Assembly (NCBI GenBank): GCA_964396715.1
Contig: CAYNFQ010000001.1
Coordinates: 117,873 to 181,872, forward strand
Direction: 5' to 3'
Length of the DNA: 64,000 bases
Source: an uncultured Gammaproteobacteria bacterium
GTDB lineage: Bacteria > Patescibacteriota > Microgenomatia > Daviesbacterales > UBA10151
The notes below the pieces were generated by a model that saw only the letters and a list, made by a program, of their open reading frames with translations, was not told where the DNA came from and did no database searches. Position 1 is the stretch's first letter; every line of letters begins with the position of its first letter. The translations under genes were made by a program, and so were the position numbers. Shown in pieces: positions 32,227 through 61,847 of the stretch.

Positions 32227-34377
32227 ATGATGGATATTAAAAAAAATTTGAGTCCACTAATTATTTTAATAGTTTGTTTGATCCTTATTTTTGTATGGTT
32301 TAACAAGGGTTTGCTTTTTGCAGGTGGAGAGGGGGGAATCCCTTTTTATAACCTTTCAAAAACTGCAGAGCGCATTTCTTATCTTTGGATAGATGAAGAG
32401 GCTGGTTATCCGGGTGTAGGCAATCTAACAGAAGTCCCTTACTATGCATTGCTTAAGATCCCTTTGCAGTTTGGTGTGCCTTCAAATCTGGTTCAGGCTT
32501 TTCATTTTTTCTTGGTTATGTTTACCGGCGTGGTTTCTGTATATTTTCTGATAAAAATAACCATAGAGGAAGAACTTAAAAAAAATCTTAATTTTTGGGG
32601 CGCAAAATATATATCTTTGATTGGCGCTATCTTCTATTTATTAAATCCTTTTTCCATGTCGCAGGTTTTTGGCAGGAGTTTAAATATTCAATATCTTTCT
32701 TTTGTATTGCTGCCTTTATTTCTCCTGCTGTATATCAGGGGACTTAAAACAAGAAATCTAATATATGGCTTTTTAAGCTTGATACCTTCTTTTATCTTCT
32801 CAGGAGCGTATGGCAGTTTTGGATATATACCAGCACTTTGGTTTCTGGTATTTCTTTATACTGTATTTTACCTTTGGAAAAATAGAAGTAAAAGAGAAAT
32901 TATTTTTGGTATTTTTTTCTTATCTTTTGTTTTTCTCAGCTGGATCATGGTAAATCTTTTTTGGATTATTCCGGTTTTTAAATTAGGGGGACAACAACTG
33001 GCAGCTTCCCTTAATGCGACAGAGGAAAATCTTGGGTCTTTAAGAGGGGTGAGTAAGCATTTTTCTCTGCCTATTCTTATCAGGCTTCTTCATACAGGAT
33101 ATTTCTATGAGGATTTATACGGGATTGTTTATTCAAGTTTATTCTTTGTGATTATAAGTTGGATAATTCCTGTAGTGTCATTTTTTTCATTAACCCTTTT
33201 TAAGAAAGTAACCAGTTTTAAATTCTACCTGACTTTATTTGTAATTTCCCTTTTTATATCTTTAGGTTCTAATTTCCCAACAGGCTGGTTATTTGAATTC
33301 ATATTTGAAGCTGTACCTGCATTTCAAATGTACAGGAATCCTTATGAAAAATTTGGGCTGATTTTTCTTTTAGCCTATACCCCATTTTTTGCATTGGGGA
33401 CTCTGGTTTTGTCAGAAAAATTAGCTGCCTTTTTTAAACATCAACGTTTAAAGTATTTTTGGGTGGTGCTCATTCTTTTTCTGGTGAGTGGCATTTTTGT
33501 TTGGCCAATGTGGAAGGGAATTTTTGCAGGAGGTTACAGGATCAATACCTGGATAAACGTACCTGATTATTATAAAAATGCTAACGATTGGTTAAATCAG
33601 CAGGATGGAGATTTTAGATTGTTGCATCTTCCTTTAATTCCAGGAGATGGCATAAGGTATAAGTGGGATCATCCATATCAAGGCATTGAACCGTCTGAAT
33701 TTTTATTTGATAGAGCATCAATAGCTCAAAATATTCCTTTTAACAAACAATATTACAATGTTTTACTTCAGCGCATTGGGATTTTCCAGCCAAATATTTT
33801 TGGTTCTGATCCTGATTTGACAAATTCGGAATTTAAATCCGAAAAATTAGGGGAAGAGTTAGCGAAATTAAATATTCGATATATAGTTTTACATAATGAT
33901 ATTGATGTTAGTTTCGGTGGTTTCAAAACACCACAAGAAACTGCAGTCTATTTGGCCAAAGATAAAAAAATAATCAAAGTTAAAAGTTTCGGTCAGCTGG
34001 ATATATATGAGGTGGAAATTCCCCAAAATATTCAAATTATTTATTCTCCATCAACTACTTTAATCTATGAAAAAATTAACCCCGCTTTTTATAAAGTAAA
34101 AGTTACTGATGAAGTTAAACCTTTTAATTTGAATTTTCTTATGTCTTACAATTCAAATTGGCACGCTGTTATTGATGGTGAAGTAATACAGGATCATGTA
34201 AAATTATTTTCGTATGGAAATTCCTGGGAAGTTAACAAAACCGGCAGTTTTGAAATAGATTTAGTTTATAAACCGCAGGAACTGGTTAAACAGGGACAAA
34301 TAATTTCAACGTTTTCGTTTATAGTAATATCTCTGCTGATGGTCTGTTACCAAATTATATGGAAAAAAAGAATTTAA
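32227..34377 (+). CDS. Large polytopic membrane protein, family B (N-terminal multi-TM GT-C-like domain + C-terminal extracytoplasmic beta-rich domain)
   Basis: Shares WFxxGLxFxGGxxGxxFxN, RNPYEKFG, LLHLPLIPGDGIRYKWDHPYQGIEPSEF, IRYIVLHND motifs with the giants at 38636, 42468 and 46347. Confidence 0.65.
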   Translation: MMDIKKNLSPLIILIVCLILIFVWFNKGLLFAGGEGGIPFYNLSKTAERISYLWIDEEAGYPGVGNLTEVPYYALLKIPLQFGVPSNLVQAFHFFLVMFTGVVSVYFLIKITIEEELKKNLNFWGAKYISLIGAIFYLLNPFSMSQVFGRSLNIQYLSFVLLPLFLLLYIRGLKTRNLIYGFLSLIPSFIFSGAYGSFGYIPALWFLVFLYTVFYLWKNRSKREIIFGIFFLSFVFLSWIMVNLFWIIPVFKLGGQQLAASLNATEENLGSLRGVSKHFSLPILIRLLHTGYFYEDLYGIVYSSLFFVIISWIIPVVSFFSLTLFKKVTSFKFYLTLFVISLFISLGSNFPTGWLFEFIFEAVPAFQMYRNPYEKFGLIFLLAYTPFFALGTLVLSEKLAAFFKHQRLKYFWVVLILFLVSGIFVWPMWKGIFAGGYRINTWINVPDYYKNANDWLNQQDGDFRLLHLPLIPGDGIRYKWDHPYQGIEPSEFLFDRASIAQNIPFNKQYYNVLLQRIGIFQPNIFGSDPDLTNSEFKSEKLGEELAKLNIRYIVLHNDIDVSFGGFKTPQETAVYLAKDKKIIKVKSFGQLDIYEVEIPQNIQIIYSPSTTLIYEKINPAFYKVKVTDEVKPFNLNFLMSYNSNWHAVIDGEVIQDHVKLFSYGNSWEVNKTGSFEIDLVYKPQELVKQGQIISTFSFIVISLLMVCYQIIWKKRI

Positions 34378-35528
34378 AAATTTATATTTTTGCCCTAGCT
34401 GCAACAGGTTCGGGAATTTCTGGTTCTGACAGGATTTTTATTGAATTTACTAGAAAGTGGAGTAAAGAAGTTCCAGTGATAGTCTATCTATGGAGGGAGG
34501 GTTATGAGATGTGCCAAAGGCAAAATCTGGGAATATCAAATATTGAATATCGAATATCGAATATGAAATCATGGAGACCTTTTAGATTTCTAATAAATTA
34601 CATAGTTAGAATTATAGAGGGGATAAAACTAGGGACTATCTTAAAATTAAAAAATACTCCCCAAATCATTATTTATTCAGCTTCGGAATTTTGGATGGAT
34701 TCATTGCTGGCATTTTTATTAAAATTGCGCTTTCCCAAGGTTAAATGGGCTGCAGCATGGTATCAAACTGCACCTAGTCCGCTAAAAGGATTTTCCGGGT
34801 CTTTAATTTATTGGTTAGTTCAACTTCCAATAAAACCTCTGATTGATAGATTTGCTAACTTTGTTTTAGTAAATAATGATATGGAGAAGAAGGTTTTCAA
34901 GAGACTGAACAGAAAAAATAAAGCAATAGTTGTTTTGGGAGCAATAGATCTAGAGGGAATAAAAAAGTGGCAAAAGATTATCGGTAAAAAGAAGAAAATT
35001 TATGACGGAGTATTTCAAGGCAGGTTTCATCCGCAAAAAGGAGTTTTGGAGCTTATTGGTATATGGAAGAAGGTGGTTGATAAGAAACCGGATGCAAAAT
35101 TGGTAATGATAGGGGATGGGCCACTGATGGAAAATGTCAAATTACAAATTACAAATTACAAATTAAACAAAAACATCATTCTCAAAGGGTATATGTTTGA
35201 TGGGGAAGAGAAATATAAGATATTTGCCCAAAGCAAAATTGTGGTGCATCCTGCCATCTTTGATTCCGGCGGTATGGCATCGGCCGAGGCAATGGCTTTT
35301 GGATTGCCTTGCGTGGGTTTTAATTTAAAATCATACATTTACTATTACCCTTCAGGAATGGAAAAGGTTGATGAAGGAAATACCGAAGCTTTTGCCAAAA
35401 AAATACTTGAGCTTCTAAGTAATAAAACTTTATATGAAAAAGTATCCAAAGAAACATTGTATCTAATTAATTATAAATGGTCATGGGAATATAGGGCTCG
35501 TCAAATACTACAAGCAGTGTTAGAATAA
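34359..35528 (+). CDS. GT4 (GT-B) glycosyltransferase
   Basis: C-terminal GGMASAEAMAFGLPCVGF GT4 signature. Confidence 0.75.
   Translation: MEKKNLKIYIFALAATGSGISGSDRIFIEFTRKWSKEVPVIVYLWREGYEMCQRQNLGISNIEYRISNMKSWRPFRFLINYIVRIIEGIKLGTILKLKNTPQIIIYSASEFWMDSLLAFLLKLRFPKVKWAAAWYQTAPSPLKGFSGSLIYWLVQLPIKPLIDRFANFVLVNNDMEKKVFKRLNRKNKAIVVLGAIDLEGIKKWQKIIGKKKKIYDGVFQGRFHPQKGVLELIGIWKKVVDKKPDAKLVMIGDGPLMENVKLQITNYKLNKNIILKGYMFDGEEKYKIFAQSKIVVHPAIFDSGGMASAEAMAFGLPCVGFNLKSYIYYYPSGMEKVDEGNTEAFAKKILELLSNKTLYEKVSKETLYLINYKWSWEYRARQILQAVLE
34531..34572. repeat. Imperfect heptanucleotide tandem repeat (GAATATC)x6 within GT4 CDS (encodes GISNIEYRISNMKS)
   Basis: gaatatc aaatatt gaatatc gaatatc gaatatg aaatcat. 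Confidence 0.85.
35138..35165. repeat. Perfect heptanucleotide tandem repeat (CAAATTA)x4 within the same GT4 CDS (encodes KLQITNYKL)
   Basis: caaattacaaattacaaattacaaatta. Confidence 0.9.
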
Positions 35529-38000: not shown

Positions 38001-38682
38001 TCACCGGCATGAATTTGAAAAAGATTCACAGAGCAAGTTTAAATTATTTTTAATGGCTATATCCGATCCATTGTCTTGGGTTGTTGATAAATCGGTAAGG
38101 TCAATATTGGATTTGGGGTGCGGTCAGGGCAAGCCAATGGCTATGATCAAACTTTGGCACAAAATAGATACTGCGGTGGGAGTTGAGCTATATAAGCCGT
38201 ATATTAAACTTGCAAGAAAGCAGAAGTTACACGATAAATATATTATTGGAGATGTAAGAGAGGTTAATTTTAAACCAAAATCTTACGATTTAGTTTTAGC
38301 CTCCCATGTTCTAGAGCATCTTCCTAAAAAGGATGCATGGAAACTTTTGAGCAAGATGGAAAAAATTGCCAAGATGCAAATTATTGTGGCAACGCCGATC
38401 GGAGCAATTTATCAACCTGCTTTTGATGATAATAAACTCCAGCAACACAAATCACATTTTCTGCCGGAAGAATTTGAAAAAAGAGGTTACAAGGTGATCA
38501 AATACGGTTTAAGATTTCTTTTGGATGAACATTCCGGGGGATTAGTTTACAAATTTAGCAATCCTACTGTTAAAAAAATTATCTATATTGTTAATTTTTT
38601 AATGACTCCTCTTTACTATCTATTCCCTCAAATTTGTGATTATTCGTTTGTGGCCTACAGGAGTATTAATAGTGAAAATTAA
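37990..38682 (+). CDS. Class I SAM methyltransferase, tandem paralog of the C-terminal domain of 36444..38000
   Basis: ILDLGCGQGKP...ASHVLEHLPKKDAWKLL...FLPEEFEKRGYKVIKYGLRFLL collinear with fused domain; start at Met13 of ORF. Confidence 0.7.
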   Translation: MKHNHRHEFEKDSQSKFKLFLMAISDPLSWVVDKSVRSILDLGCGQGKPMAMIKLWHKIDTAVGVELYKPYIKLARKQKLHDKYIIGDVREVNFKPKSYDLVLASHVLEHLPKKDAWKLLSKMEKIAKMQIIVATPIGAIYQPAFDDNKLQQHKSHFLPEEFEKRGYKVIKYGLRFLLDEHSGGLVYKFSNPTVKKIIYIVNFLMTPLYYLFPQICDYSFVAYRSINSEN

Positions 38683-41600
38683 AGATTACCTCTCAGTTGC
38701 CTTTTTATTTATTTTGTCAACTATACTTATTTTGATTTGGTTTAAGCAAGGACTGGCATTTGGCGGAGGAGACGTAGGTTTGCCCACTTTTAACCCCCAA
38801 AGGATTTTTCAATTTATCAGTCATATCTGGTGGGAAGCATCAGCCCCGGGTTTTCCAAGACCCCAGGGAATAACGGGTACCCCCTTTTATTTTTTGTTGT
38901 CCTTATTACAAAAAATAATTCCCTCATATGTATTAATGCAGGCTTTAATCTTCTGGTTGGTACTTTTTTTTATGGGGCTGGGTATGTACCTGGTTTCAAA
39001 AAGCGTTTTCGGAAAAGAAAAAGTGCTAATACCTCTTGTCTCCAGCATACTGTATCTCGTTAATCCTTATATGCAAATTTCAGTTTGGCATAGGTTTGTG
39101 CACACCACTTTTTTTCTGGCATCGACACTGCCTTTTTTGTTTATTTTTTGGCGCAGGTGGATTACATCAGGAAAACGATTAGATCTTCTTATTTTTTCTT
39201 TAATTAATGTTTTAGGTGCAATAATTTTCAGCACTTTGGGGTTTGTGATCAGTTTGTGGGTTTTTTTATTTTTTACCTCTTTTTTTATTATTTTTATACC
39301 GCGAAAAAGTTTATTCGAGGCAAAAACAATTATAGTAAGATCTACTGCGGGATTTATTGTTTGGGTATTTATATCTTTGTGGTGGATTTTGCCCCTTTTT
39401 GCTACTTCGCAGGCGATTTTTTCCAGACAGCACTCTTCAGCTGAGAGTGTAACAAACTTAATTGTTTTAAGCAACCAAACGGCAATTCCCAATACCTTGC
39501 AGGGAATTAACCCTTTTTATTTGTTTGAAGAAAAAGAATGGGGGGAAATTTACAATCAGTGGTATTTTCTACTGATGCCATTCATCCTAGTTACCCTGGC
39601 AGTTTTGGGGTTTGTAAGGGGTTTGGGTGATCGCAAATTTATTTTTTGGAGCCTGCTTTTTTTAGTAAGCATAATTTTTGCCAAAGGGGCGGCAGCCCCT
39701 TTTGGAGGCGGTTTTGTATATTTGTTTAGTAAATTTTTTGTATTGGGAGTTTTGAGAAATCCGTTTGAGAAAATAGGTATTTTTATACCCTTTACTTACG
39801 CCATCCTTATCCCGATAGGCTTGATCACTTTTTTTAAATTTGCCAAAAAAGCGAAACTTCAATATATAGTTATGCCATTTGTATCTATATTGCTGATTTT
39901 GATTTTAGTCATTTGGCATTGGCCATTTTGGCAGGGAAAATTATTCGGAAGCCAATATAGTCCGCCCGAAGTTCAGGTACCGGATTATTATTTAAAGGCA
40001 GATAATTGGATAAAGGAACAAGGAAAGGATGGAAGAATTCTTCACCTGCCGCTGGTTGTCGGTGAAGCAACTGCGTATAAGTGGGAGTATGGCTACAGAG
40101 GTGTTGAGCCGAGCCAGGTTTTTTTCACTTCAAATCCTTCTCTGTCCCAGGGGTTTAATTTAAGCTTTTTGGATGATGCGCTAGCAACGCTGCAGATATT
40201 TTTAAACAGGAGTGATTTTGTTGATGAAGATCAAATCAGGCAACTTCTTAAAATTTTTGGGATCCGATACATTGTTTTACATCTTGATATGGATCCAACA
40301 TATATGGACGTATACAACCCAATAAGGCTTAAAAAACAATTGGGTCAGCTTAAGTTTCTAAAAAAACAGAATGAATTCGGCAAACTTATTATATATGAGG
40401 TTCTGGAAGAAAACCCTATCATTTTTACAGCTTCATCTTTTGATTATTTACTAATGGGAGAGAAAAATCAATTTTGGCCCTGGTTAATTAAGAATAAAAA
40501 CAATCAACTTATCTCAGGGATAGACTTGGATGAAGATTCGATTCATACGGATCATTCGATAGTAGTTGCTTCTTTCTCATTTGATACACCGCCCTCAAAT
40601 CCCGTGGAAGAAAAAATAGAATTGGATCAGCTTCCATCTGTCCGGATACTACCAGGATCCCCCTTTTATTTTTTAATAAGGCTGAAAGAGTACTTTGAAA
40701 CATATTCTGTTTTTGGGAAAGAACGTATTTCAAAACAAATCCTCTTTGCCAGTAAAAGGCTTGTGGAAGCGGTTAAGATAAAGGAACTTGATAAAAACAA
40801 CCAAATCTCGGCAATTTTAACAGATTATTCAGACCTTTTGGACAAGCTGAAACTATCATTAAAAGGGGCATTTCCCTATGAAAAATCTGCAGTTGATGCA
40901 ATATTTGCAAGACATAGTGTTATTTTAGATTCACTTACAGATTCCGCTGTTACAGGTAGTGAGAAGGAAATTGTAGTAAAAGCTAAAGAAAAATTGGCCG
41001 AAGATTTGAGTTTATGGGGTTTGCGGCCTCTTATCGCTTTTAATAAAGAAACATCATTGTATAACAGAAGAGTATTTACATTTCAGGTTTCGAAAACAGG
41101 GGATTATGAGGTTTTATTCGGCCTGGATAAAGGAAATAGCTTTGATGAAATTTTTGATATAGCTTTGGATGGAAAACCGATCTTAAAAAATAATCCGACT
41201 GATCTGGAACAACCGGTCAAAATAATAAGTTTCGGCAAAATATATTTAGAGCCAGGTTATCATGAATTAAGTTACCGTTCCAAAAAAATTCCCGTAAATA
41301 TTTTATCGCTTGATAAGTGGTTTAAGTCGGAAAAAGGCGAGTTTAGCGGAAACTCAGATGAGATGAGTATAAGCAGTGAGATAAATGAAACAGCGAGCAT
41401 GCAATTGCCTATGAAAGATTTTATTGCCGGGAATACTTATATACTTCGATTTGAATACTGGGTTCAAAAAGGCAAGGGGCCGATAGTGCAAGTACTTTCG
41501 GATAACGACCCAATAATAAAAGGTAAAAGAGAGATGAAAGCAGATAAGCAGTTTGCCGCCGAAACCTATAACCGTTATTGGCAAAATGCGTTTGTGAGTT

Positions 41601-42139
41601 TTGAACCCCGTTTGTCAGCCGATGATACTTTAATTGAGATATCGGTTGAACCCTGGAATGATTGTGAGATAATCAGCCCGATTCGTTCGACTTGCAAGAT
41701 TAAGAAATTTAGAAAACAATTTGACAGAAAAAGCACATTGATTGTCAAAAATGTTGTCCTTGAAAGAATTTCCAGGTCTGAGATTTTTCTTAAAACCTCA
41801 AATAGCAAAATTAAAGAGTCTACAAATTCAGGCAGGGTTGAATATGCTAGGGAAAACCCTTCTTTTGTCAGGGGGAAATTAAAAATCGATAAACCCCAAG
41901 TTTTGGTATTCGCTGAAACTTTCGATAAGGGTTGGAAGTTAGATTTATTTAAAGAGGGTAGAAAAATTAATCCTCAGGAGCATTTATTGGTAAACGGTTA
42001 TGCTAATGGTTGGTTGGTAAAGGAAGCTGGAGAATATGAATTCTCTATCAATTTTGACGCCCAGAAACTAGTCAACATAGGCGGTATAATATCTATGATA
42101 ACTTTGGGGGGATTACTATTATGGCTTATCAGAAAATAA
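38636..42139 (+). CDS. Giant (1167 aa) polytopic membrane protein, family B; N-terminal ~570-aa multi-TM GT-C-like module and ~600-aa C-terminal extracytoplasmic domain
   Basis: WFKQGLAFGGGDVGLPTFNPQRI...WWEASAPGFPRPQG, VLRNPFEKIG, ILHLPLVVGEATAYKWEYGYRGVEPS, IRYIVLHLDMD, C-terminal NGYANGW; alternative GTG start at 38672. Confidence 0.7.
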   Translation: MIIRLWPTGVLIVKIKDYLSVAFLFILSTILILIWFKQGLAFGGGDVGLPTFNPQRIFQFISHIWWEASAPGFPRPQGITGTPFYFLLSLLQKIIPSYVLMQALIFWLVLFFMGLGMYLVSKSVFGKEKVLIPLVSSILYLVNPYMQISVWHRFVHTTFFLASTLPFLFIFWRRWITSGKRLDLLIFSLINVLGAIIFSTLGFVISLWVFLFFTSFFIIFIPRKSLFEAKTIIVRSTAGFIVWVFISLWWILPLFATSQAIFSRQHSSAESVTNLIVLSNQTAIPNTLQGINPFYLFEEKEWGEIYNQWYFLLMPFILVTLAVLGFVRGLGDRKFIFWSLLFLVSIIFAKGAAAPFGGGFVYLFSKFFVLGVLRNPFEKIGIFIPFTYAILIPIGLITFFKFAKKAKLQYIVMPFVSILLILILVIWHWPFWQGKLFGSQYSPPEVQVPDYYLKADNWIKEQGKDGRILHLPLVVGEATAYKWEYGYRGVEPSQVFFTSNPSLSQGFNLSFLDDALATLQIFLNRSDFVDEDQIRQLLKIFGIRYIVLHLDMDPTYMDVYNPIRLKKQLGQLKFLKKQNEFGKLIIYEVLEENPIIFTASSFDYLLMGEKNQFWPWLIKNKNNQLISGIDLDEDSIHTDHSIVVASFSFDTPPSNPVEEKIELDQLPSVRILPGSPFYFLIRLKEYFETYSVFGKERISKQILFASKRLVEAVKIKELDKNNQISAILTDYSDLLDKLKLSLKGAFPYEKSAVDAIFARHSVILDSLTDSAVTGSEKEIVVKAKEKLAEDLSLWGLRPLIAFNKETSLYNRRVFTFQVSKTGDYEVLFGLDKGNSFDEIFDIALDGKPILKNNPTDLEQPVKIISFGKIYLEPGYHELSYRSKKIPVNILSLDKWFKSEKGEFSGNSDEMSISSEINETASMQLPMKDFIAGNTYILRFEYWVQKGKGPIVQVLSDNDPIIKGKREMKADKQFAAETYNRYWQNAFVSFEPRLSADDTLIEISVEPWNDCEIISPIRSTCKIKKFRKQFDRKSTLIVKNVVLERISRSEIFLKTSNSKIKESTNSGRVEYARENPSFVRGKLKIDKPQVLVFAETFDKGWKLDLFKEGRKINPQEHLLVNGYANGWLVKEAGEYEFSINFDAQKLVNIGGIISMITLGGLLLWLIRK

Positions 42140-42483
42140 AATCAGTATCCATAAGGTTGTTTATTTTGTTTCTTTCAATAGTATTGATTTATTATACTAA
42201 TGGTAATGCCGGCAGTGAATCTTTTGGAAATATTCAATCTGCAATTTTGTCAGCAGGTTTGATTGTTGCAGTGTATTTACCTGCTAAGAGGCCTTTCATA
42301 CTTCTCTTTGCCATTTTAATGTGGTCTGTTATGATAGGATTTTACCTGGTAGAAGCTCGGGATTATGCTTACTTTTTCGGCAGTATAGGTTTTGGGATAA
42401 TATTTCTGGTAATCTTAACTTATGTTCCGGAACTTTTAAAAACAGGTTATATAGCCGATTTTCAAAAATGGTTCAAAGATTAA
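42121..42483 (+). CDS. Small (120 aa) 3-4 TM membrane protein following giant B1
   Basis: Hydrophobic; C-terminal GSIGFGIIFLVILTYVPELLKTGY resembles GSLGIGILAILIFSYFGDFVKRGF of 45935..46264. Confidence 0.5.
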   Translation: MAYQKIKSVSIRLFILFLSIVLIYYTNGNAGSESFGNIQSAILSAGLIVAVYLPAKRPFILLFAILMWSVMIGFYLVEARDYAYFFGSIGFGIIFLVILTYVPELLKTGYIADFQKWFKD

Positions 42484-45400
42484 CAAAATTTTTTTTCAAT
42501 AATAATTTGAACAGTCATTTTTTTGCGTTATTTACGTTTTTTTTACTCAGTGTATTTCTTGTTTTCAGCTGGTTTAGACAAGGCTTAATTTACGGGGGAG
42601 GAGATGTTGGTTTGCAGACCTTTAATCCCCAAAGGATACTGGAAATCTCCCAATTTATCTGGTGGGAAGCAACCGCCCCCGGTATTCCGGTTCCCCAGGG
42701 TTTAACCGCCATACCATTCAATTTTGCCTTTTCTATTTTACAATCCATAGGTTTTAGCCCGTTTTTACTTCAGGCAAGCTTGTTTTTTCTTATACTTTTC
42801 TTCTGTGGTCTGGGAATGTATTTTCTTATTTTATTTTTGTTTGGGGACAGGTATAAAATTTATGCAATTTTGGCGGGATTATTCTATATGGTTAATCCAT
42901 ACATGATGATTTCGGTTTGGCACAGGTTTGTCCACTCAACGTTCTTCTTTATTTCGGCTCTGCCTTTTTTAACTATTTTCTGGCTGAAGTGGATCAGGAA
43001 CAAAAATCCGATATCACTCCTGATTTTTTTATTAATTAACCTTATTTCCTTGTATGCTTTCGGGACGATTGCCTATATTCTTACCCTCTGGCTTTTCCTT
43101 TTTCTAATCACTATTCCTGAAATAATTTTTTCCTGGCAAGGCCTAAAAAATTTTAAGAAAATATTGACGGTTTTTTTAGTAGGTTTCTTTTTTTGGGTTT
43201 TGACAAATGCCTGGTGGTTGGTGCCTATATTTAAAATCTCTCCGACTGCTTTGTCGGAGCAACACAGTAATGAAGAAACTTTATCTACACTAATAAATAT
43301 AAGCAGACAAACTATACTTCCCTACTCATTACAAATGATCAATCCTTTCTATTTATTTTACCAGCTGGATTTGGGGAAAAGTTACCAGAATGTTTTTATC
43401 CGTGTCCTCCCTTGGATTTTTGTTTCAGTTATTTTTATCGGATTAATAAGGGCTTTGTTCAATAAAGACATGGCAAGATGGACTCTGGTTTATCTTGCCG
43501 TAATATTTTTTGCCAAAGGCGCGGCTTCCCCCTGGGGTTTTATATATATCTTTGCCTTAAAATATTTTTTCCCCCTCGGGGTGCTGCGGAACCCGTTTGA
43601 AAAAATTGGTATTCTGTTACCTCTGGTAAGCACAATTTTATTTATCATTGGATTAAAATTTGTTTATGAAAGCCTAAGACATAAATTCAGCGTGAGGGTT
43701 GCAGCAGTTAGCCTGGTAGTTGTTTTTGGATCTGTTTTTATTTTTTGTTTGCCCTTATTCGGAGGGAGAATATTTGGTAGGTTTGATAAACCGGAATTTG
43801 TAAGTGTACCGCAATCTTATAAGGATGCGGATAATTGGATTAAATCCGACTATGAAAAGAATAAAAATCAAAATCCAGGCAAGATTTTACATTTGCCCCT
43901 GACAAGAGGTGAAAGCATTAATTATAATTGGGAATATGGCTACAGCGGACTGGAATCCAGTGCATTATTCTTTACAGCCGCCCCTTCTATTTCTCACGGG
44001 TTCAATCTCAGGAGAACTGATGATTCTTTGACAACGCTTTATTATTCGCTTCGAAATAGTCATTTATTTGATCAGAATATTACAAAAAGACTCTTGAGTG
44101 ATTTTAATATTGCCTACATTGTGTTGCATAAAGATGTGAAATGGCAGGGTTCTGATTTGTACAATCCCGCAGAGACAGAGGAGGTTTTAAATAAATTAAA
44201 TTTTATTAAACTTGAAAAAACCTTTGGAGATTTAATGATTTATAAAGTATTGGAAGAGAATTTTAATCCGAAGATTTTCATAAGCGGAAACTATCACATA
44301 ATTTATCCTCCCAATACTTTTAGCGTACAGCCCTGGATAGAAGCGTCAGGTAGTTCCATCATAACTTCCGTAGATATTGAAGATAATCGAAAATTGGAGG
44401 AATTTTCCCGAAGCACTACAATTTTTTCTAAAAGCTCCTTTGTTTATACAGAGGCATCATCTTCTTCAATTGTGTCAACTATAAATGCATTGGTTTCCAA
44501 TCCGGCAAGTAAAGACTTATGGTTAGATTCATTAATTAAAATCAGGCCGATTTTGAAACAAAATGGTGAGATCCAGGCAGAAGAATTTAGCAGTCAAATA
44601 ATTTATGCCAGTGAAAAAATTTTAAAAATAATGAGAGGATTTGCTTTAGAGAAAAATGATCCTTCCCCAAAAGAGGTAGACGATTATGGTCAAATAGTTA
44701 AAAACCTCTTTTCTGCCAATACCTACAGTCCCAGACTACAACTTTACGCTAACAGTACACAGCTCAGTCAGATATTCCAGATTCATTTATACATTCTCAA
44801 AATAATTTCTGAAATAACCCAATCAGAAACCAGAAACAATTTGATAAGGGTTTTAGATCTGTTAAAAGAAAATTTATCCAGAAATAATCTTATTCCCGAT
44901 TCTTCGGAGATGCAGGCTATCTCATCAAGAAGAGATGTTTATAAATTTGAAGTGCCTTATGATTCGGATTACAAAATTATCCTTGCATTTTCCAAGGACA
45001 AATCTATTTATCAAAATAAATTAGATAAGCTATTTTTTATCCTTGACGGTAAACCACTTAATTTTAAGGGAGAGGTAGAAAATGACCTAATTTCATTTGG
45101 TCCTGTATCCATTGCAAAGGGGTCACACATGATTAGTTTTCCGGTCCTTTTATCGGATAATTTATCAGTTATCGCTAATTTTATTAAGGGGGGGGAGGTT
45201 AATTTATCAGATGATGGTAATTTTTATCTTAAGGGGGCTGACACTAATTTAAGCTTTCTAGAAAGTAGAATAAACAATACTTTTGGACAAGACATATTTA
45301 AAGTAAACTTCGATGTAAAAGTAGAAAAAGGAAACGGTTTTAATTTTCAACTTTTGCAGGATACGGACACCATTGATCAAACCGGCCAGCCGAATTTGGC

Positions 45401-45938
45401 AATAAATCAGAAGATTTTCCAACCGGAGGGAACAGATTGGCTAGAGTATGATTTTTTTCTGCCGCCTCTCAGGTTTAATACGGATACTGTTGCCATAAGA
45501 TTTGTAGCTAATTCTCCCATAAAAGTAAGAAATTTAAAAATTGAGAGAGTATTTAACGGAGACGTTTTTTTAAGGGATATTAAATCTTTTAATAAGATAA
45601 ATGATAAAGGAGCGGGTAAGGTAGATTTCTATCAAAAAAACCCTGCCCTTTACAGAGGTAAGATTTATTTGGATAAACCATCCTTTATAATATTTTCAGA
45701 ATCTTTTCATCCCGGTTGGAAATTAGTTTTATCTAAACAGGGCAAAGATTATATTCCTACCATTCATACAATGGCAAACCTTTATGCAAATGCCTGGTAT
45801 ATTGATAAAGACGGCGAATATGATTTTAAGCTGGAATTTGAACCTGAAAGAATAGTGAAAATTGGCTCTCTATTGGCATTAGCAGGTTATTTGAGTCTTA
45901 TAATCTATATTATCTTAAAAAATAGAAAAAATAGATGA
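42468..45938 (+). CDS. Giant (~1156 aa) polytopic membrane protein, family B paralog
   Basis: WFRQGLIYGGGDVGLQTFNPQRI...WWEATAPGIPVPQG, VLRNPFEKIG, ILHLPLTRGESINYNWEYGYSGLESS, IAYIVLHKDVKW, LYANAW; start at Met50 of ORF (overlaps 3' end of small protein gene). Confidence 0.7.
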   Translation: MVQRLTKFFFNNNLNSHFFALFTFFLLSVFLVFSWFRQGLIYGGGDVGLQTFNPQRILEISQFIWWEATAPGIPVPQGLTAIPFNFAFSILQSIGFSPFLLQASLFFLILFFCGLGMYFLILFLFGDRYKIYAILAGLFYMVNPYMMISVWHRFVHSTFFFISALPFLTIFWLKWIRNKNPISLLIFLLINLISLYAFGTIAYILTLWLFLFLITIPEIIFSWQGLKNFKKILTVFLVGFFFWVLTNAWWLVPIFKISPTALSEQHSNEETLSTLINISRQTILPYSLQMINPFYLFYQLDLGKSYQNVFIRVLPWIFVSVIFIGLIRALFNKDMARWTLVYLAVIFFAKGAASPWGFIYIFALKYFFPLGVLRNPFEKIGILLPLVSTILFIIGLKFVYESLRHKFSVRVAAVSLVVVFGSVFIFCLPLFGGRIFGRFDKPEFVSVPQSYKDADNWIKSDYEKNKNQNPGKILHLPLTRGESINYNWEYGYSGLESSALFFTAAPSISHGFNLRRTDDSLTTLYYSLRNSHLFDQNITKRLLSDFNIAYIVLHKDVKWQGSDLYNPAETEEVLNKLNFIKLEKTFGDLMIYKVLEENFNPKIFISGNYHIIYPPNTFSVQPWIEASGSSIITSVDIEDNRKLEEFSRSTTIFSKSSFVYTEASSSSIVSTINALVSNPASKDLWLDSLIKIRPILKQNGEIQAEEFSSQIIYASEKILKIMRGFALEKNDPSPKEVDDYGQIVKNLFSANTYSPRLQLYANSTQLSQIFQIHLYILKIISEITQSETRNNLIRVLDLLKENLSRNNLIPDSSEMQAISSRRDVYKFEVPYDSDYKIILAFSKDKSIYQNKLDKLFFILDGKPLNFKGEVENDLISFGPVSIAKGSHMISFPVLLSDNLSVIANFIKGGEVNLSDDGNFYLKGADTNLSFLESRINNTFGQDIFKVNFDVKVEKGNGFNFQLLQDTDTIDQTGQPNLAINQKIFQPEGTDWLEYDFFLPPLRFNTDTVAIRFVANSPIKVRNLKIERVFNGDVFLRDIKSFNKINDKGAGKVDFYQKNPALYRGKIYLDKPSFIIFSESFHPGWKLVLSKQGKDYIPTIHTMANLYANAWYIDKDGEYDFKLEFEPERIVKIGSLLALAGYLSLIIYIILKNRKNR

Positions 45939-46264
45939 AAAAAATGTTGCTTAAAACTTTTTTTGTAATAATGTCTTTTTTTATCTTTTGGTGGCTGGAA
46001 TCCGGCTTGAAAATAGAAGAAATTAGCGCAATTATTAAGCCTTTAATATTTGCCCTCTCAGTTTCAATGACTTTTTCAATTAAACTTCGAAGGTATTTAT
46101 TATACATAAGTTTCTTGTTTTATTGTCTGATGATTTTTCTATATTTAATTTGGCAAATAAGCTTAGCAAACCTTGCAGGAAGTTTAGGAATTGGGATACT
46201 GGCTATCTTGATATTTAGCTATTTTGGTGATTTTGTAAAAAGGGGTTTTGTTGAGAAGCTATGA
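45935..46264 (+). CDS. Small (109 aa) membrane protein following giant B2
   Basis: ATGA overlap with giant stop; 3 hydrophobic segments; C-terminal motif shared with 42121..42483. Confidence 0.5.
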   Translation: MKKMLLKTFFVIMSFFIFWWLESGLKIEEISAIIKPLIFALSVSMTFSIKLRRYLLYISFLFYCLMIFLYLIWQISLANLAGSLGIGILAILIFSYFGDFVKRGFVEKL

Positions 46265-46350
46265 AATACCTATTCTCACTTATTTTATTTTTTCTGATAG
46301 TAGCATCGGTATTTTTTTATATTTTGGGGGTTAGATTTAAGAAAAAATGA
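46261..46350 (+). CDS. Micro-ORF, 29-aa single-TM peptide MKYLFSLILFFLIVASVFFYILGVRFKKK
   Basis: ATG overlaps upstream TGA (46261-46264), its TGA overlaps ATG of giant B3 (46347-46350); below ORF-track length cutoff. Confidence 0.35.
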   Translation: MKYLFSLILFFLIVASVFFYILGVRFKKK

Positions 46351-49031
46351 AGAAAAGAATTGCCTTAATGTTTTTTCTGATCTTACCCTTTTTTTGGATT
46401 TTTTGGTTACCTGGCCCTAGGGTGGCAACAGATTATCACCTGACCACAAAGGAAACCCAGCTGGATAACCTGTTTCCCTGGATCTGGAGAGAAACCAGTG
46501 TGGCAGATGGTTTGGGGGAATATACTGCTATTACTCTTTGGTCACAGCCGCTTCATTCATTTTTCGCCAGTCTATATCAGATTAATTTACCTTTTTCATT
46601 TTTGACAAAGCTGCTTGTCGGATTAATTATCCTGCTTAGTATTATTTCCATGCTCAAGCTTTTAGATTATTTGAAAATTAAAAGTCCGTATCAAGAAGTT
46701 GGTGTAATTTTTTACATATTAAATACATTTTTTTTACTTCTCCTTGACGGTGGACAGTTGGCCTTGACACTTGCTTACGCAGTTTTTCCTCTCTCGGTTT
46801 ATTGTTTTCTGCTACTCATGCAAACAGCAAATTTGAAAAGAAGACTTTTATTTGCTTTCAGCGTCCTGGCAATTTCCATATTTGATATCAGGATTGTTTA
46901 TTTGCTGTTTATGGTCTGTGCCATTTTTGTCCTGTTTAAATTTTTTTTATCACCTTCAAAAAAAGAAGTTGTTTTAGTTTTTAAAGAGGTTTTACTATCA
47001 GCAATATTTACCATACTGATAATTTTTCCCTTTCATGCTTACTGGATACTACCTGCTTTAGTTGTTAAGACACCACAGTTGCCGCAGACTTATGAGAGAG
47101 TTTCCCAGATAGATTTTTTAAGCTTTTCCACACTGCTTCATTCCCTAATTTTGAATCAGCCCCACTGGTATAAAAATATCTTTGGTAAAATATCAGAGGT
47201 AAGTTTTGAGTTTTTGCTGATTCCCGCAACAGCTTTTATCTCTTTAGCCCTAGTTAGGAGAAATACCCAGGTTGCTTTCTGGTCACTTATTGCAATCTTG
47301 GGAATTTTTCTCTCCAAGGGTTCAAATCCACCCCTGCCTCAAATTTATTCTTATCTTTTTGCCAGCATTCCCGGATTTTCAATTTTCCGTGATCCTGCCA
47401 AATTTTATTTTCTAATTTGTATCGCGTACACAATATTAATAGGATTTTCTCTTCAGGCGATGGGTAAGTTAGCAAAAATTATCCCATTTGTTTTTCTTTT
47501 GTATATAGTCTGGCTTGCCAGGCCGGTATATCTTGGACAAATGAGCGGACTATTTTCCTTCCCATCTTTTGAAAAAGAATTTAATTTACTATCAGAGGTA
47601 ATAAAAGAAGACAAACAATTCTCCCGGGTTTTCTGGATTCCCAATTCAGCACCTTTAGGTTATGTTGGTCCCAATCACCCGCAAGTTGAAGCTTCCAGGT
47701 TATCTAAAAAAAGGCCTTTTGCCGCAGCAACAGTAGGAACTTATGAGACATTTAATTTCTTAAGAGAGGCACCTTTCATGGGAGAAATTTTTGATGTGTC
47801 GGGGATTGGATATATTGCATATCCCTATATAGACAAACAAAGGGAGGAGGCGGATTTTGATAAAGAAAAATATTACTACACATTTTTAAATCAACTGTCC
47901 AAACTTCCCTGGGTTTCCAAAGTTGAATATTCGGGTATGCCGCTGCTTAAAGTCAAAAATCACCAGGATAAATTTTTTGTTACGGGAAATACCTGGTGGA
48001 TAATAGGGGATGATAGTTTATATAAAGAGTCAACCAAAAGTGCTACGCTTAAATTATCCAAAAACAGTTTGATTTTTACCGAAGAGCATGCGGGTTTGGG
48101 GAAAAGACTGGATGAGGTTTCGGATGCCAAAATTATACTGAATAAAAAAAGCAACATAGACCTTGCAGCAAGTTTTATTGATGCCTCAAAACTTTTTTTT
48201 CCGGCAAAAAGCCTTAATTTCAGTCCCGATGAATCAGGTTGGTGGAAAAGGGAGGCGGTGGATTTGGTTTGGTGGAGAGATTTTTTACAAAACAAATACG
48301 GGATAGATAATAAGGATTTTGATTTAGGAGGAGGATGGGCGGTGGGGGAAGGGTATTCAAAGTTCAAAGTTCAAAGTTCAAAGTTCAAAAAGGACAATAT
48401 TTTGCTGGCAAGAGTAATGGAAAGTTCCAGAAGTGGGAATTTGAAATTTTATCAAGACAATCAACTAATCGGGGAAGTGGGAACTAAAATTAACGGAGAT
48501 GCCAATGTTAGATGGTTTGAAGTAGGGGAGTTAAGTGGAAATGGTAGCGGGATTGCTATAGAGTCCACAGGAGATATTAATGTGGTTAATACATTGGCAG
48601 TTTTGGACAAAAACGACTGGGATAGTTTAAAGGATAAAGCCGATAAGCTGCAGGGGAGAGTGGTAAGTTTTGATGACAAGAGTATACAAAATGTAACCGG
48701 CTCCATGGTTTCTTACCGGAGGATAAACCCCACTAAATATATTGTAAATATAGACGGTTTAACAAAGCCGTCATTGTTAGTATTTTCCCAAAATTATGAT
48801 AGTTTATGGAAGATGAGTGGTCAGACTCCCCTGCCACGTTCAGCTAACATGAACGTGGCTCTGCCGGTGTATAGTTTGCTGAATGGATTTAGAGTGGAAC
48901 AGGACGGAGAGTATATTGTTGAATTTGAGGCGCAAAAGTATGTTTATTTAGGGTTAGCAATCTCCATAATGACTTTGCTTACAATAACTTTTCTACTCAT
49001 CTTAGGCACCAGGAGATCATCTAGGCTATAA
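46347..49031 (+). CDS. Giant (894 aa) polytopic membrane protein, divergent family B paralog
   Basis: N-terminal multi-TM, FRDPAKFYFL (aligns to RNPFEKIG), C-terminal LLNGF...DGEYIVEFEAQKYV like DGEYEFSINFDAQK of B1. Confidence 0.65.
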   Translation: MKKRIALMFFLILPFFWIFWLPGPRVATDYHLTTKETQLDNLFPWIWRETSVADGLGEYTAITLWSQPLHSFFASLYQINLPFSFLTKLLVGLIILLSIISMLKLLDYLKIKSPYQEVGVIFYILNTFFLLLLDGGQLALTLAYAVFPLSVYCFLLLMQTANLKRRLLFAFSVLAISIFDIRIVYLLFMVCAIFVLFKFFLSPSKKEVVLVFKEVLLSAIFTILIIFPFHAYWILPALVVKTPQLPQTYERVSQIDFLSFSTLLHSLILNQPHWYKNIFGKISEVSFEFLLIPATAFISLALVRRNTQVAFWSLIAILGIFLSKGSNPPLPQIYSYLFASIPGFSIFRDPAKFYFLICIAYTILIGFSLQAMGKLAKIIPFVFLLYIVWLARPVYLGQMSGLFSFPSFEKEFNLLSEVIKEDKQFSRVFWIPNSAPLGYVGPNHPQVEASRLSKKRPFAAATVGTYETFNFLREAPFMGEIFDVSGIGYIAYPYIDKQREEADFDKEKYYYTFLNQLSKLPWVSKVEYSGMPLLKVKNHQDKFFVTGNTWWIIGDDSLYKESTKSATLKLSKNSLIFTEEHAGLGKRLDEVSDAKIILNKKSNIDLAASFIDASKLFFPAKSLNFSPDESGWWKREAVDLVWWRDFLQNKYGIDNKDFDLGGGWAVGEGYSKFKVQSSKFKKDNILLARVMESSRSGNLKFYQDNQLIGEVGTKINGDANVRWFEVGELSGNGSGIAIESTGDINVVNTLAVLDKNDWDSLKDKADKLQGRVVSFDDKSIQNVTGSMVSYRRINPTKYIVNIDGLTKPSLLVFSQNYDSLWKMSGQTPLPRSANMNVALPVYSLLNGFRVEQDGEYIVEFEAQKYVYLGLAISIMTLLTITFLLILGTRRSSRL
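48356..48390. repeat. Heptanucleotide tandem repeat (TTCAAAG)x4 + 1 imperfect inside giant B3 CDS (encodes SKFKVQSSKFKK)
   Basis: ttcaaagttcaaagttcaaagttcaaagttcaaaa; same CAAAGTT unit as 13593-13627. Confidence 0.9.
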
Positions 49032-51096: not shown

Positions 51097-51788
51097 GTGA
51101 TCCTTCTTCTTTTCAAACATTGGAATCAATGAGTCAGGCTGTCTGGTATAACCAGTGGACTTTAAAACTCTTTGCCAAATATTTAAAAGGAGATATCCTG
51201 GAGGTTGGTTGCGGAATAGGAAATTTTACCAAATCTTTACTAAAATACGGTAAAGTTTGGGCCGTAGATATTAATAGAATATATATAAGCAATATTAAAA
51301 AAGAACAGGGGGATAAAGTGCGGGTTGGGTTTGGTGATATTGCAAAAGGAAAATATTTTTTTGGTAAGCGGAATTTTGATAGCATCGTTTGCCTAAATGT
51401 TCTGGAACATATTGAGAAAGACGATACGGCATTAAAAAATTTATTTGATCTTTTACAAAACAACGGAACTTTAATTCTACTAGTGCCGGCCCACCCTTTT
51501 CTTTATGGCGAAATTGACAGATCAATAGGTCACTTCAGAAGGTATTCTAAAAAAGAATTATTAAACATAATGGAAAGTATAGGCTTTAATATTATTGAAT
51601 CCTGGAGAATAAACTTTTTGGGGGCAATAGGTTGGTTTATTGCGGGAAGGATTTTGAACGAAAATAAAGTTGAAAATGAAAAAATAAAAATATTTAATTT
51701 ATTGGCACCCTTTTTTTTGGCGATTGAAAATATCATTGAACCGCCAATCGGGACTTCTATACTGGTAGTTGCGCAGAAAAAAATATGA
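51093..51788 (+). CDS. Class I SAM-dependent methyltransferase
   Basis: ILEVGCGIGNFTKSL motif I, LNVLEHIEKDD. Confidence 0.75.
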   Translation: MSDPSSFQTLESMSQAVWYNQWTLKLFAKYLKGDILEVGCGIGNFTKSLLKYGKVWAVDINRIYISNIKKEQGDKVRVGFGDIAKGKYFFGKRNFDSIVCLNVLEHIEKDDTALKNLFDLLQNNGTLILLVPAHPFLYGEIDRSIGHFRRYSKKELLNIMESIGFNIIESWRINFLGAIGWFIAGRILNENKVENEKIKIFNLLAPFFLAIENIIEPPIGTSILVVAQKKI

Positions 51789-52525
51789 AAACGCTTTCCA
51801 TTATTATTCCTGTATATAACGAGGAAAAAACTGTTGGAGTATTATTAGGAAAGGTAGTAGATGCGAAATTACCCGCAGGTTTCAAAAAAGAAATAATTAT
51901 TATTGATGATGGATCAACCGATAAAACTGAATCAGTTTTATCGAAATGTCAAATGTCAAACCTGTCTGCCGTCAGGCAAGATGTCAAATGTCAAATTTTT
52001 AGACATAATACAAATCAGGGTAAAGGTGCTGCCATAAGAACAGGTTTAAAGCATGTGACAGGAGACTATATTATTATCCAGGATGCGGACTTGGAATATA
52101 ATCCTGCTGATTATAAAGAGTTGCTTAAGCCGATTTTGGAAAAAAAGGCTAAGGTAGTATACGGCACCAGGTTAAAAAACTATCCATTAAGGTTGTGGGG
52201 GGAAAATAAGACAATACTGCCCTTGCATTTAATAGCAAATAAGTTTTTAACTTTTATGACAAATATGCTTTATGGAAGTAAACTCTCTGATATGGAAACC
52301 TGTTATAAATTATTGACAAAAAATGTCCTAACTGGTTTTGATTTGCAATCAAACAGATTTGAAATTGAACCGGAGATAACCGCCAAAATATTAAAAAGAG
52401 GATTTTCAATTTTAGAAATCCCGATCAAAGTTACTCCCAGAACACACAAAGAAGGTAAAAAAATCAGCTGGAAAGATGGATTTAGGGCTGTATTTAGCTT
52501 AGTTAAATATCGATTTTATGACTAG
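51785..52525 (+). CDS. GT2 polyprenyl-phosphate sugar synthase (DPM1/ArnC-like), paralog of 7739..8455, carrying an in-frame repeat insertion
   Basis: LSIIIPVYNEEKTV...IIIDDGSTDKT, QDADLEYNP; insertion CQMSNLSAVRQDVKCQI absent from paralog. Confidence 0.75.
   Translation: MKTLSIIIPVYNEEKTVGVLLGKVVDAKLPAGFKKEIIIIDDGSTDKTESVLSKCQMSNLSAVRQDVKCQIFRHNTNQGKGAAIRTGLKHVTGDYIIIQDADLEYNPADYKELLKPILEKKAKVVYGTRLKNYPLRLWGENKTILPLHLIANKFLTFMTNMLYGSKLSDMETCYKLLTKNVLTGFDLQSNRFEIEPEITAKILKRGFSILEIPIKVTPRTHKEGKKISWKDGFRAVFSLVKYRFYD
51944..51994. repeat. Composite element inside GT2 CDS: (AAATGTC)x2 - 20-nt core cctgtctgccgtcaggcaag - (ATGTCAA)x2; the core is the reverse complement (1 mismatch) of the 28-nt repeat unit at 61240-61312
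   Basis: Read directly; reverse complement of cttgcctgtcggcagacagg (61255-61274) is cctgtctgccgacaggcaag. Confidence 0.8.
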
Positions 52526-60591: not shown

Positions 60592-61209
60592 ATGTATAAT
60601 CTTTACATGAGTATTTTTACAGACAGGATGGGAAGGGGTTTAACGGCCGCGCAGGCTTTGGGGAAAATCCTGGGAAGGATTTATAATTGGGTTTTGGATA
60701 TTGAACTGCTTGTGGTGACCTGGGCAGGTTTGGTTCCCCTGCATTCATTTCGCCTTTTTATTTACTTTTTGGCTGGTATGAAGATAGGCAAAGATTCAAG
60801 GATTCATATTGGCGCCCGCTTTTTTTATCCGGCAAATATTACGATTGGAAATGGGACTATTATTGGAGATAACGCATTTTTGGATGGGAGGGATAAACTT
60901 ACTATTGGTGATCATGTGGATATTGCCTCGCAAGTTTTGATCTATAACAGTGAGCATGATATCAATTCAGATGACTTTCACGCGGTAAATGGGATTGTGG
61001 AGATTGGCGATTATGTTTTTATCGGTCCCAGGGTAATCATACTGCCGGGAGTAAAGATAGGCAGGGGAGCAGTTGTTGCGGCAGGAGCTGTGGTGACAAA
61101 AGATGTAGAAAATTTCGCCATAGTCGGAGGAGTGCCGGCAGAAGTGATAGGCGAACGAAAGATTCACAACTTACATTATCAGCTTGGGAGGGCACGCTTA
61201 TTCCAATGA
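60592..61209 (+). CDS. Hexapeptide-repeat (LbH) O-acetyltransferase, WcaF/WbbJ-like
   Basis: [59 protein letters not shown] hexapeptide repeats. Confidence 0.8.
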
Positions 61210-61847
61210 AGAAATTTCCAATCTCTCGACTTCGCTCGAGACAGGTTTTCAATCTTGCCTGTCGGCAGACAGGTTTTCAATCTTGCCTGTCGGCAGACAG
61301 GTTTTCAATTTTTTTACTGTTCTCTTTTTTACTGTTTATTTATATGGTTTGGCCTTCACCTTCTGCCATAGCGGATTTTAAGTCTCTGCCAAATTCTCAA
61401 AAATCGCGCCTGGAGGGTGACACAATACAAATCCCCAATGTTGCCGCTTATTTTTCCAATCACTACCGTGAATTTGTGGTGCCTTTTTATGCAAAAAATT
61501 ACCGGTTAAAGGTGAATTTGCCAATTCCCCCGCTCAGATTAAATCACCCGCCCGAATTTTCCTGGATTACAATAAAAAAACATACGGATTCCACCTATCT
61601 TGAGGAGTTGGTTTATCCTTTAAGAGATTCGTTGTTTGTAAACGGATATGAGCCATTTTATCCTGATGGGTCACCTAAATTTTGGGGGTCAACAAAATTT
61701 GAGGTTGACGGAAATCTTTGGGAGACCAAAACTACCTTGAGGTTTTACCACTCGAGTATTTGGATCAGACTGCTTGTTTGGTTTGGAATAACTTTATCCA
61801 TTTTTCTGCTATATAAAATGACTAAAAAAATTATATTTAATAAATGA
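61206..61847 (+). CDS. Hypothetical bitopic membrane protein (N- and C-terminal TM segments, central extracytoplasmic domain); 5' coding region contains the 28-nt tandem repeat
   Basis: ATGA overlap with acetyltransferase stop; residues 12-36 encoded by the repeats in shifting frames; no family recognised. Confidence 0.45.
61240..61312. repeat. Tandem direct repeat, 28-nt unit gacaggttttcaatcttgcctgtcggca x2.6; adjacent units form hairpin CCTGTC-ggca-GACAGG
   Basis: Read directly; two perfect copies (61240-61267, 61268-61295) plus 17-nt partial third. Confidence 0.9.

Follow-up and report, generated by a model that had tools for sequence, protein, structure and literature searches.

Phase variation of the glycosyltransferase gene pglE of Neisseria meningitidis is driven by a heptanucleotide repeat, and both ON and OFF states occur among isolates and change during carriage (PMC7157529). 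In Haemophilus influenzae, heptanucleotide simple sequence repeats (SSRs) of 6-38 units are found in the hmw1A and hmw2A promoters, in the homologue of HI1369 and in the hmw1a open reading frame (ORF); the tracts are strain-variable, and some strains have them in a frameshifted state (PMC2651432). Here we report on a perfect heptamer array, (TTCAAAG)x4.86, located within the coding sequence of a gene called here B3, on a 64,000-nucleotide stretch of Daviesbacterales DNA (GenBank assembly GCA_964396715.1, contig CAYNFQ010000001.1, positions 117,873 to 181,872 of the forward strand) that is referred to as the window. As in pglE, the 7-nt repeat lies within the coding sequence of a predicted surface-glycan glycosyltransferase and a one-unit change shifts the frame; unlike pglE, B3 is ON at equal length in ~90 distinct orthologs, and its tract has 4.9 units and lies 75% into the gene. 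Heptamer units, some of them in ORFs, and the frameshift on a unit change are also common to the Haemophilus tracts, whereas the Daviesbacteria tract is short, length-invariant and always in frame.

A repeat within a coding sequence is routinely taken for a phase-variation switch when the length of its unit is not divisible by three, and the initial annotation of the window had proposed this tract as a candidate ON/OFF or domain-truncation switch. The anatomy of a switch was confirmed, with a unit that is not a multiple of 3 inside an ORF and truncation of the product on a one-unit change, whereas the corresponding variation was not found (none of 116 loci out of frame). We favour, with moderate confidence, the explanation that the tract is a length-locked coding microsatellite, seeded by a protein motif, homogenised by replication misalignment and held at its length by selection. 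The case of B3 illustrates that the inference of a switch is fallible: a heptamer tract may be perfect and yet be old, keep its position and lack any observed OFF state. No publication on heptamer repeats or on phase variation in the Candidate Phyla Radiation (CPR)/Patescibacteria was found by literature search, and PMC3315296 contains no statement on heptamers.

The heptamer array and its host protein

The array (positions of all features are collected in Table 1) consists of four copies of TTCAAAG followed by TTCAAA, 34 nt in length; position 48390 is an A, not a G, and closes a fifth, degenerate unit. Tandem Repeats Finder (TRF) described it with period 7, 4.9 copies, 100% matches and a score of 68. 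It is in frame within the B3 ORF, ~75% along the gene, and codes for residues 670-684 (..GEGY-SKFKVQS-SKFK-KDN..). The array is part of a 48-nt segment of five heptamer units in fixed register, which codes for the 16-aa hairpin GYSKFKVQSSKFKKDN and is flanked by the conserved anchors DFDLGGGWAVGE and ILLARVMES. Chance expectation was obtained from 100 second-order Markov simulations of the window, in which perfect arrays of at least 3 copies and at least 14 nt were counted. Three perfect period-7 arrays (at 4226, 35138 and 48356) were present against 0.01 expected per window, and perfect arrays (at least 3 copies, 14 nt) with any of the other periods between 2 and 15 were absent from the window. 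This excess shows that the observation is real and far from chance. The heptamer repeat that had been read inside the B3 coding sequence is thus a genuine, non-random coding heptamer microsatellite and a potential frameshift site. In silico, removal of one unit led to a stop after 687 aa and addition of one unit to a stop after 715 aa, compared to the full 894 aa, in line with the earlier proposal that a one-unit change truncates the protein after its transmembrane (TM) module. Such a change would remove the beta-sandwich and the C-terminal anchor helix and leave the membrane module and the alpha/beta domain.

Regarding the B3 protein, a Pfam search gave no match. The identical protein is also encoded on JACPUL010000012.1 (GCA_016192255.1, a Candidatus Daviesbacteria metagenome-assembled genome (MAG); CPR, Microgenomates), where HYZ05_02755 is annotated as a hypothetical protein. 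An AlphaFold2 model was built with 27 homologs as input (mean predicted local distance difference test (pLDDT) 74.5) and compared to the PDB with Foldseek. The best match was mycobacterial AftD (6w98, E = 4.5e-10); further matches were OST/STT3, PglB and DPY19, and the sandwich matched CBM6 modules. AftD resembles B3 in combining a multi-helix membrane domain with soluble beta-sandwich modules, which in AftD are periplasmic and carbohydrate-binding; it differs by a sequence identity of only ~10% and by its size (~1400 aa vs 894 aa for B3). B3 is also a distant paralog of the upstream proteins B1 and B2 (BLASTP, E = 1e-9 and 1e-7, respectively), and B1, as well as B2, matches Pfam GT-C_AftD. 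All 27 homologs share residue D29, which lies in the first loop, after TM1, and around which pLDDT is low (50-58). From the Foldseek and BLASTP matches, B3 is predicted to be a surface-glycan enzyme of the GT-C/AftD type, which agrees with the surface-modifying enzyme suggested by the initial annotation. In the model, the first strand (671-675) and the turn that precedes the second one (684-691) are made by the repeat-coded residues 670-684. The pLDDT values of 87-92 at the repeat-coded strands indicate an ordered structural element rather than a disordered linker, and the model shows the 16-residue segment as the first beta-hairpin of the predicted extracytoplasmic CBM-like beta-sandwich.

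Frame and length of the array in related genomes

More than 200 full-length homologs of B3, with 45-74% identity, were found, mainly in Daviesbacteria. The loci compared were taken from species-representative genomes (49) and from metagenomes (80), together with L132, the closest NCBI relative. The anchors on both sides of the array share the frame in 116 of 116 ortholog loci (91 distinct sequences), and no OFF allele was detected in 131 loci by tblastn with anchors on both sides of the array. The segment measures 48 nt in ~95 of the 116 ortholog loci; the other lengths observed (45, 51, 54, 57, 63, 72, 75 and 84 nt) are all in frame, differ from 48 nt by amounts that are not multiples of 7 or 21, and correspond in several cases to GC-rich inserts. 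When closely related loci were matched by their flanks, no copy-number difference was found, only differences in unit content at equal length; the exceptions were hairpin inserts, in frame and 18-27 nt long, and, for L005, a single difference of +/-6 nt.

All of the best 120 homologs are full length except P0089 (671 aa). This protein was considered as an allele truncated at the repeat and rejected, as its contig, L002, shows a missing N-terminus with the repeat region in frame. The ortholog on L002 (JAMCXV010000074.1, 235..2250) lacks ~220 N-terminal residues despite 234 nt of upstream contig, and its short call may be due to a 5' frameshift or a miscalled start, unrelated to the repeat.

Perfect repeats are often young and MAG assemblies can hold errors, so that an origin specific to one MAG had to be considered, by insertion, by recent tandem duplication or as an assembly artefact. 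The homologs have equal length at the array site, the segment having the same 48 nt as in ~95 orthologs, and nothing was therefore inserted. L132 (GCA_016180885.1), an independent assembly from another sample, carries the identical 34-nt array in a gene with 77% nucleotide and 73% amino-acid identity, and equivalent arrays are present in dozens of independent assemblies. These data refute the artefact or duplication explanation, whose probability is practically nil.

The anatomy described above would fit a true contingency locus, in which slipped-strand mispairing would alter the unit number at an appreciable rate and toggle the GT-C enzyme between a full-length and a CBM-less form and glycan diversification would act as bet-hedging (phage, host attachment). 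Besides the unit size and the premature stops created by a one-unit change, this reading is favoured by the position of B3 in a large glycosylation cluster, by four more heptamer arrays in other glycosyltransferase genes of the window, by the concerted evolution of the units (see below), which shows that the tract is mutationally active, and by the precedent of pglE (PMC7157529). By contrast, neither of the two further marks of phase-variable loci, a difference in unit number between relatives and OFF alleles in some genomes, was found. Copy number is equal even at the 77% nucleotide identity of L132 and in near-identical strain pairs, and in addition to the uniformly open frame of the B3 loci, no broken ORF was found at the 71 period-7 TRF arrays of the 1.87 Mb surveyed. 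Unit numbers of 6-38, with differences among strains, characterise the known phase-variable heptanucleotide tracts (PMC2651432), whereas the tract has 4.9 units here, the longest array in the 1.87 Mb has 5.4 and the B3 tract never exceeds ~5; the arrays also show no bias to gene 5' ends. Most orthologs have interrupted arrays, and switchability is therefore not the conserved property. Taken together, the comparative record (~90 distinct genomes) argues against a switch whose OFF state was ever common, and we regard a contingency locus of this kind as unlikely.

One-unit slip variants (687 or 715 aa) probably occur at low frequency, and there is no indication that such variants are used. It could also be proposed that the arrays of Microgenomates glycosylation genes, that of B3 among them, are low-frequency contingency loci whose competence for slippage has been maintained over long evolutionary times, their constant-length concerted evolution being the footprint of OFF-to-ON cycles. 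We consider this quite unlikely; if true, it would be the first SSR-based surface-glycan phase variation in the CPR. The episymbiotic lifestyle of CPR bacteria depends on cell-surface contacts, and length variants, if real, would make B3 the first candidate phase-variable surface system in these bacteria.

Covariation of units, conserved motif and stop codons

The ortholog peptides encoded at the B3 site are 7-residue periodic yet unlike each other (ELRIKNSELR, EFRIQNSEFR, KYQISNIKYQ, QFTIYNLQFT, KLKVKSEKLK). The DNA of these orthologs is made of five heptamer units in the same register with a unit specific to each lineage (Table 1), and lag-7 identity reaches 0.6-0.86 against 0.1-0.5 at most other lags. 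Periodicity is frequent in orthologs with at least ~55% identity and mostly missing from the distant Woesebacteria-like orthologs; it reappears sporadically among the latter (L107, L113, L079), yet with other units.

Such periodicity could be a coincidence of protein sequence and codon usage (the K-F-K-V-Q-S-S-K-F-K hairpin) that involves no repeat-specific DNA process. The motif in AT-rich codons is by itself sufficient to yield a ladder of T's every 7 nt, as seen in non-periodic orthologs, and lag-7 identity is raised in the null expectation too (0.42, compared to 0.25-0.36 at lags 2-6 and 8-12 and 0.39 at lag 1). This null was generated by shuffling each alignment column among the 75 distinct 48-nt segments. 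The observed lag-7 identity was 0.526 vs 0.422 in the shuffled alignments (z = 16), and lags 14 and 21 were likewise in excess (z = 12 and z = 10, respectively); apart from lag 1 (z = 7.0), all remaining lags had |z| <= 3.3. Perfect period-7 runs of at least 25 nt numbered 5 against 0.001 expected, and those of at least 19 nt 14 against 0.135. The units of a sequence thus covary beyond what the column profile predicts, which indicates concerted evolution at the DNA level. Moreover, lineages differ in their unit while each is internally uniform, and near-identical strains are distinguished by one and the same change in adjacent units: the flanks of L083 and L084 are 100% identical, and a T-to-A change that affects two neighbouring units separates the two at equal length, and between L039 and L115, whose flanks are also 100% identical, the boundary between two unit types is shifted at equal length. 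The column-shuffle test largely refutes coincidence, which is very improbable as a full account of the array.

The part played by the protein motif is seen in the 28 orthologs that lack periodicity: G-x-x-x-L-x-[IV]-x-[NSD]-x-x-[LIF]-x-K-G is conserved in them, and T is most frequent at nt 13/14, 20/21, 27 and 34/35, the codons TTR (Leu), NTT (Ile/Val) and ANT (Asn/Ser) giving a 7-nt ladder of T's on an A-rich background. These T profiles suggest that the ladder may have seeded the array as a proto-repeat, extendable by misalignment. The extent of homogenisation is related to stop codons. Successive units of a heptamer array fall into each of the three reading frames in turn. In 23 of 34 periodic orthologs, a perfect array of the consensus unit would contain TAA or TGA in frame, and the departures from periodicity are found at those codons; in the clearest cases (L093, L008, L041 and L054), nearly all departures fall exactly at the would-be stop codons. 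All long perfect runs have a stop-free unit. The unit of the window, TTCAAAG, differs from the widespread TTAAAAG by an A-to-C change that removes TAA, and the tract is perfect here because of this change. A single base change that frees the unit from a stop thus appears to let an imperfect array become perfect. The arrays reach the degree of perfection that the reading frame leaves open to them, and this pattern points to a mutational drive checked by selection and not to selection for a particular peptide.

For the length-locked microsatellite that we favour, the following sequence of events can be proposed. The conserved hairpin motif, in AT-rich codons, places T's 7 nt apart and would so create a proto-repeat. 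A repeat-register process would then copy sequence between neighbouring units; the pattern of such copying is observed, and it could come about by slippage in paired -1/+1 steps or by replication misalignment followed by templated correction. Copying between neighbours would explain why each lineage has its own unit. Homogenisation proceeds as far as the frame permits, with units that contain TAA or TGA in one of the three frames remaining interrupted there and stop-free units such as TTCAAAG becoming perfect over 25-34 nt, while purifying selection maintains both a constant length and an open frame. That tandem repeats evolve in concert, through misalignment or templated (dislocation) mutagenesis, is known, usually in arrays that also change length. 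The B3 units behave likewise in resembling their array neighbours more than the orthologous units and in spreading variants between neighbouring units; they differ in that homogenisation takes place at constant length, in a structured protein segment, and halts at would-be stop codons. Intragenic copying between neighbouring 7-nt units, up to the stop-codon limit, would represent a mutational signature in a poorly known bacterial radiation.

Several points weigh against this explanation. The homogenising mechanism is inferred from sequence patterns. Cycles of -1/+1 slippage would require viable OFF intermediates, which blurs the line to phase variation. All sequences compared are consensus assemblies of uncultivated populations, in which minority length variants are invisible, and the null rests on a column profile to which arrays of common ancestry have themselves contributed. 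Finally, the identity that includes the array of L132 extends over 40 nt, and two further stretches of at least 40 nt in this gene are identical as well, so that conservation of the tract is not unique.

Heptamer arrays and hairpins at other sites

Period 7 also predominates outside the B3 site. Among perfect arrays of at least 3 copies and at least 16 nt in 1.03 Mb of ortholog loci, 12 of 12 have period 7, as do 46 of the 59 TRF arrays of at least 3 copies in these loci. In the 1.87 Mb, perfect arrays of at least 3 copies comprised 17 of period 7 (at least 21 nt), one of period 6 and none of period 8 or more; the perfect shorter tracts (12 trinucleotide, 53 tetranucleotide and 2 pentanucleotide) were all below 21 nt. 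Heptamers are thus shown to be essentially the sole class of short tandem repeats reaching at least 21 nt in these Microgenomates loci. Intact ORFs span 69 of the 71 distinct period-7 arrays, the other two being at a gene junction and intergenic.

An excess of heptameric SSRs in bacterial genomes has been described before (Mrazek et al. 2007, cited in PMC4692102). Examples include Xanthomonas GGGAATC, Nostoc GGGGA(T/C)T and the cyanobacterial short tandemly repeated repetitive (STRR) heptamers. According to a hypothesis described in PMC4692102, the excess is related to the stretch of DNA that the active site of the polymerase holds and to a slippage preference. The window and the Microgenomates loci resemble these genomes in that heptamers are over-represented compared to other unit sizes. 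The Xanthomonas, Nostoc and STRR repeats are mostly intergenic, often G-rich, length-variable and made of one dominant unit per genome, whereas the arrays described here are nearly all coding (69/71), AT-rich and of fixed length, with a unit that differs by site and lineage. A slippage preference of the polymerase may also cause the present excess, and should a property of the replication machinery underlie the 7-nt preference, the arrays would be a natural read-out of it.

Table 1. Features of the window, domains of the B3 protein and array units of the orthologous loci
Feature	Position	Strand	Context or basis
Perfect array (TTCAAAG)x4.86	48356..48389	+	direct reading, TRF, simulation
48-nt segment, five heptamer units, fixed register	48351..48398	+	ortholog lengths, AlphaFold2
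B3, predicted AftD-like GT-C membrane glycosyltransferase, 894 aa	46347..49031	+	AlphaFold2, Foldseek, BLASTP
B3 predicted helical membrane (TM) domain	residues 1-400		AlphaFold2, ~12 helices
B3 predicted alpha/beta domain	residues 420-650		AlphaFold2
B3 predicted CBM6-like beta-sandwich, extracytoplasmic	residues 664-860		AlphaFold2, Foldseek
B3 predicted C-terminal TM (anchor) helix	residues 865-893		AlphaFold2
Perfect array (GTGATAA)x4.3	4226..4255	-	in frame, flavin adenine dinucleotide (FAD) amine-oxidase-like gene 4031..5359
Imperfect array (AAAGTGC/AAAGTTC)x4.4	13601..13631	+	in frame, GT4 gene 13034..14158; TRF
Imperfect array (GAATATC)x4.9	34531..34564	+	in frame, GT4 gene 34359..35528; TRF
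Perfect array (CAAATTA)x4.0	35138..35165	+	in frame, GT4 gene 34359..35528
(AAATGTC) array split by GC-rich hairpin	51944..51996	+	GT2 gene 51785..52525
CTTACTT array, L021	11198..11226		B3 ortholog
CTTACTT array, L026	3656..3680		B3 ortholog
CTTACTT array, L083/L084	7122..7151		B3 orthologs
Unit TTCAAAG, B3 site			window, L132, L016, L103
Unit TTTACAA, B3 site			L013, L020, L025
Unit TTCAGAA, B3 site			L011, L056
Unit TTGACAA, B3 site			L008, L012
Unit TTTGAAA, B3 site			L041, L059
Unit TTAAAAG, B3 site			many orthologs

The (AAAGTGC/AAAGTTC) array of the window codes for NKFKVQSAKFKVK, a peptide very like that of the B3 array. The AAATGTC array of the GT2 gene is interrupted by a GC-rich hairpin of 20/21 nt, CCTGTCTGCCGTCAGGCAAG (51961..51980), inserted in frame, and in the orthologs L006 (CCGCTTCGCGAGGCGAGCG) and L132 (CTGCCTTCGGCAG) different GC-rich hairpins occupy the same place. 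This GT2 site is recurrent, heptamer arrays being present in a subset of orthologs (L016, L019, L033 and others) and the loop length varying between 42 and 84 nt. B3 itself contains a third site, where Woesebacteria-like orthologs carry a CTTACTT array of 25-30 nt in a TM segment at ~43% of the gene; here one and the same change, present in two neighbouring units, separates L083 from L084, whose flanks are identical.

Hairpins were also found inside the B3 array, as in-frame GC-rich inserts in L015/L063 (11968..11988), L003/L004 (~11994), L117 and L057, with sizes of +24, +27, +36 and +27 nt, respectively; they recall the in-frame palindromic elements of Rickettsia. The 5' end of ORF 61206..61847 contains, at window positions 61225..61309, 2.5 tandem copies of a 28-nt unit (AGACAGGTTTTCAATCTTGCCTGTCGGC). 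The core of this unit is the 20-mer of the GT2-gene hairpin, with two exact minus-strand copies vs 0 expected by chance, and a second hairpin, CTCGACTTCGCTCGAGACAGG, precedes the 28-nt repeat. The insert of L015, CTCGACTTCGCTCGGGACAGG, is nearly identical to window 61225..61245, which shows that a short palindromic sequence is common to distant Daviesbacteria genomes. No general association of hairpins with arrays was detected among 179 hairpins with perfect 6-bp stems, the link being confined to a handful of cases, and the named hairpin motifs are low-copy in the ortholog loci.

B3 belongs to a long same-strand glycosylation cluster, in which three large membrane proteins are encoded in a row (B1, 38636..42139; B2, 42321..45938; B3). 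The cluster also holds a Polysacc_synt flippase, GT2, GT4 and PMT_2 enzymes and methyltransferases. Three AftD-like GT-C paralogs in tandem occur in the window (38636..49031) and likewise in L132 (2984..12607). Between the tandem paralogs lie small conserved ORFs (42121..42483 and 45935..46264) of 106-120 aa with no Pfam match. Finally, the records of L003, L005, L007, L009 and many other loci, from binchicken/SRP co-assembly MAGs, are titled 'uncultured Gammaproteobacteria bacterium' while their B3 clusters are of Daviesbacteria/Microgenomates type, and the Gammaproteobacteria label on these records looks wrong.

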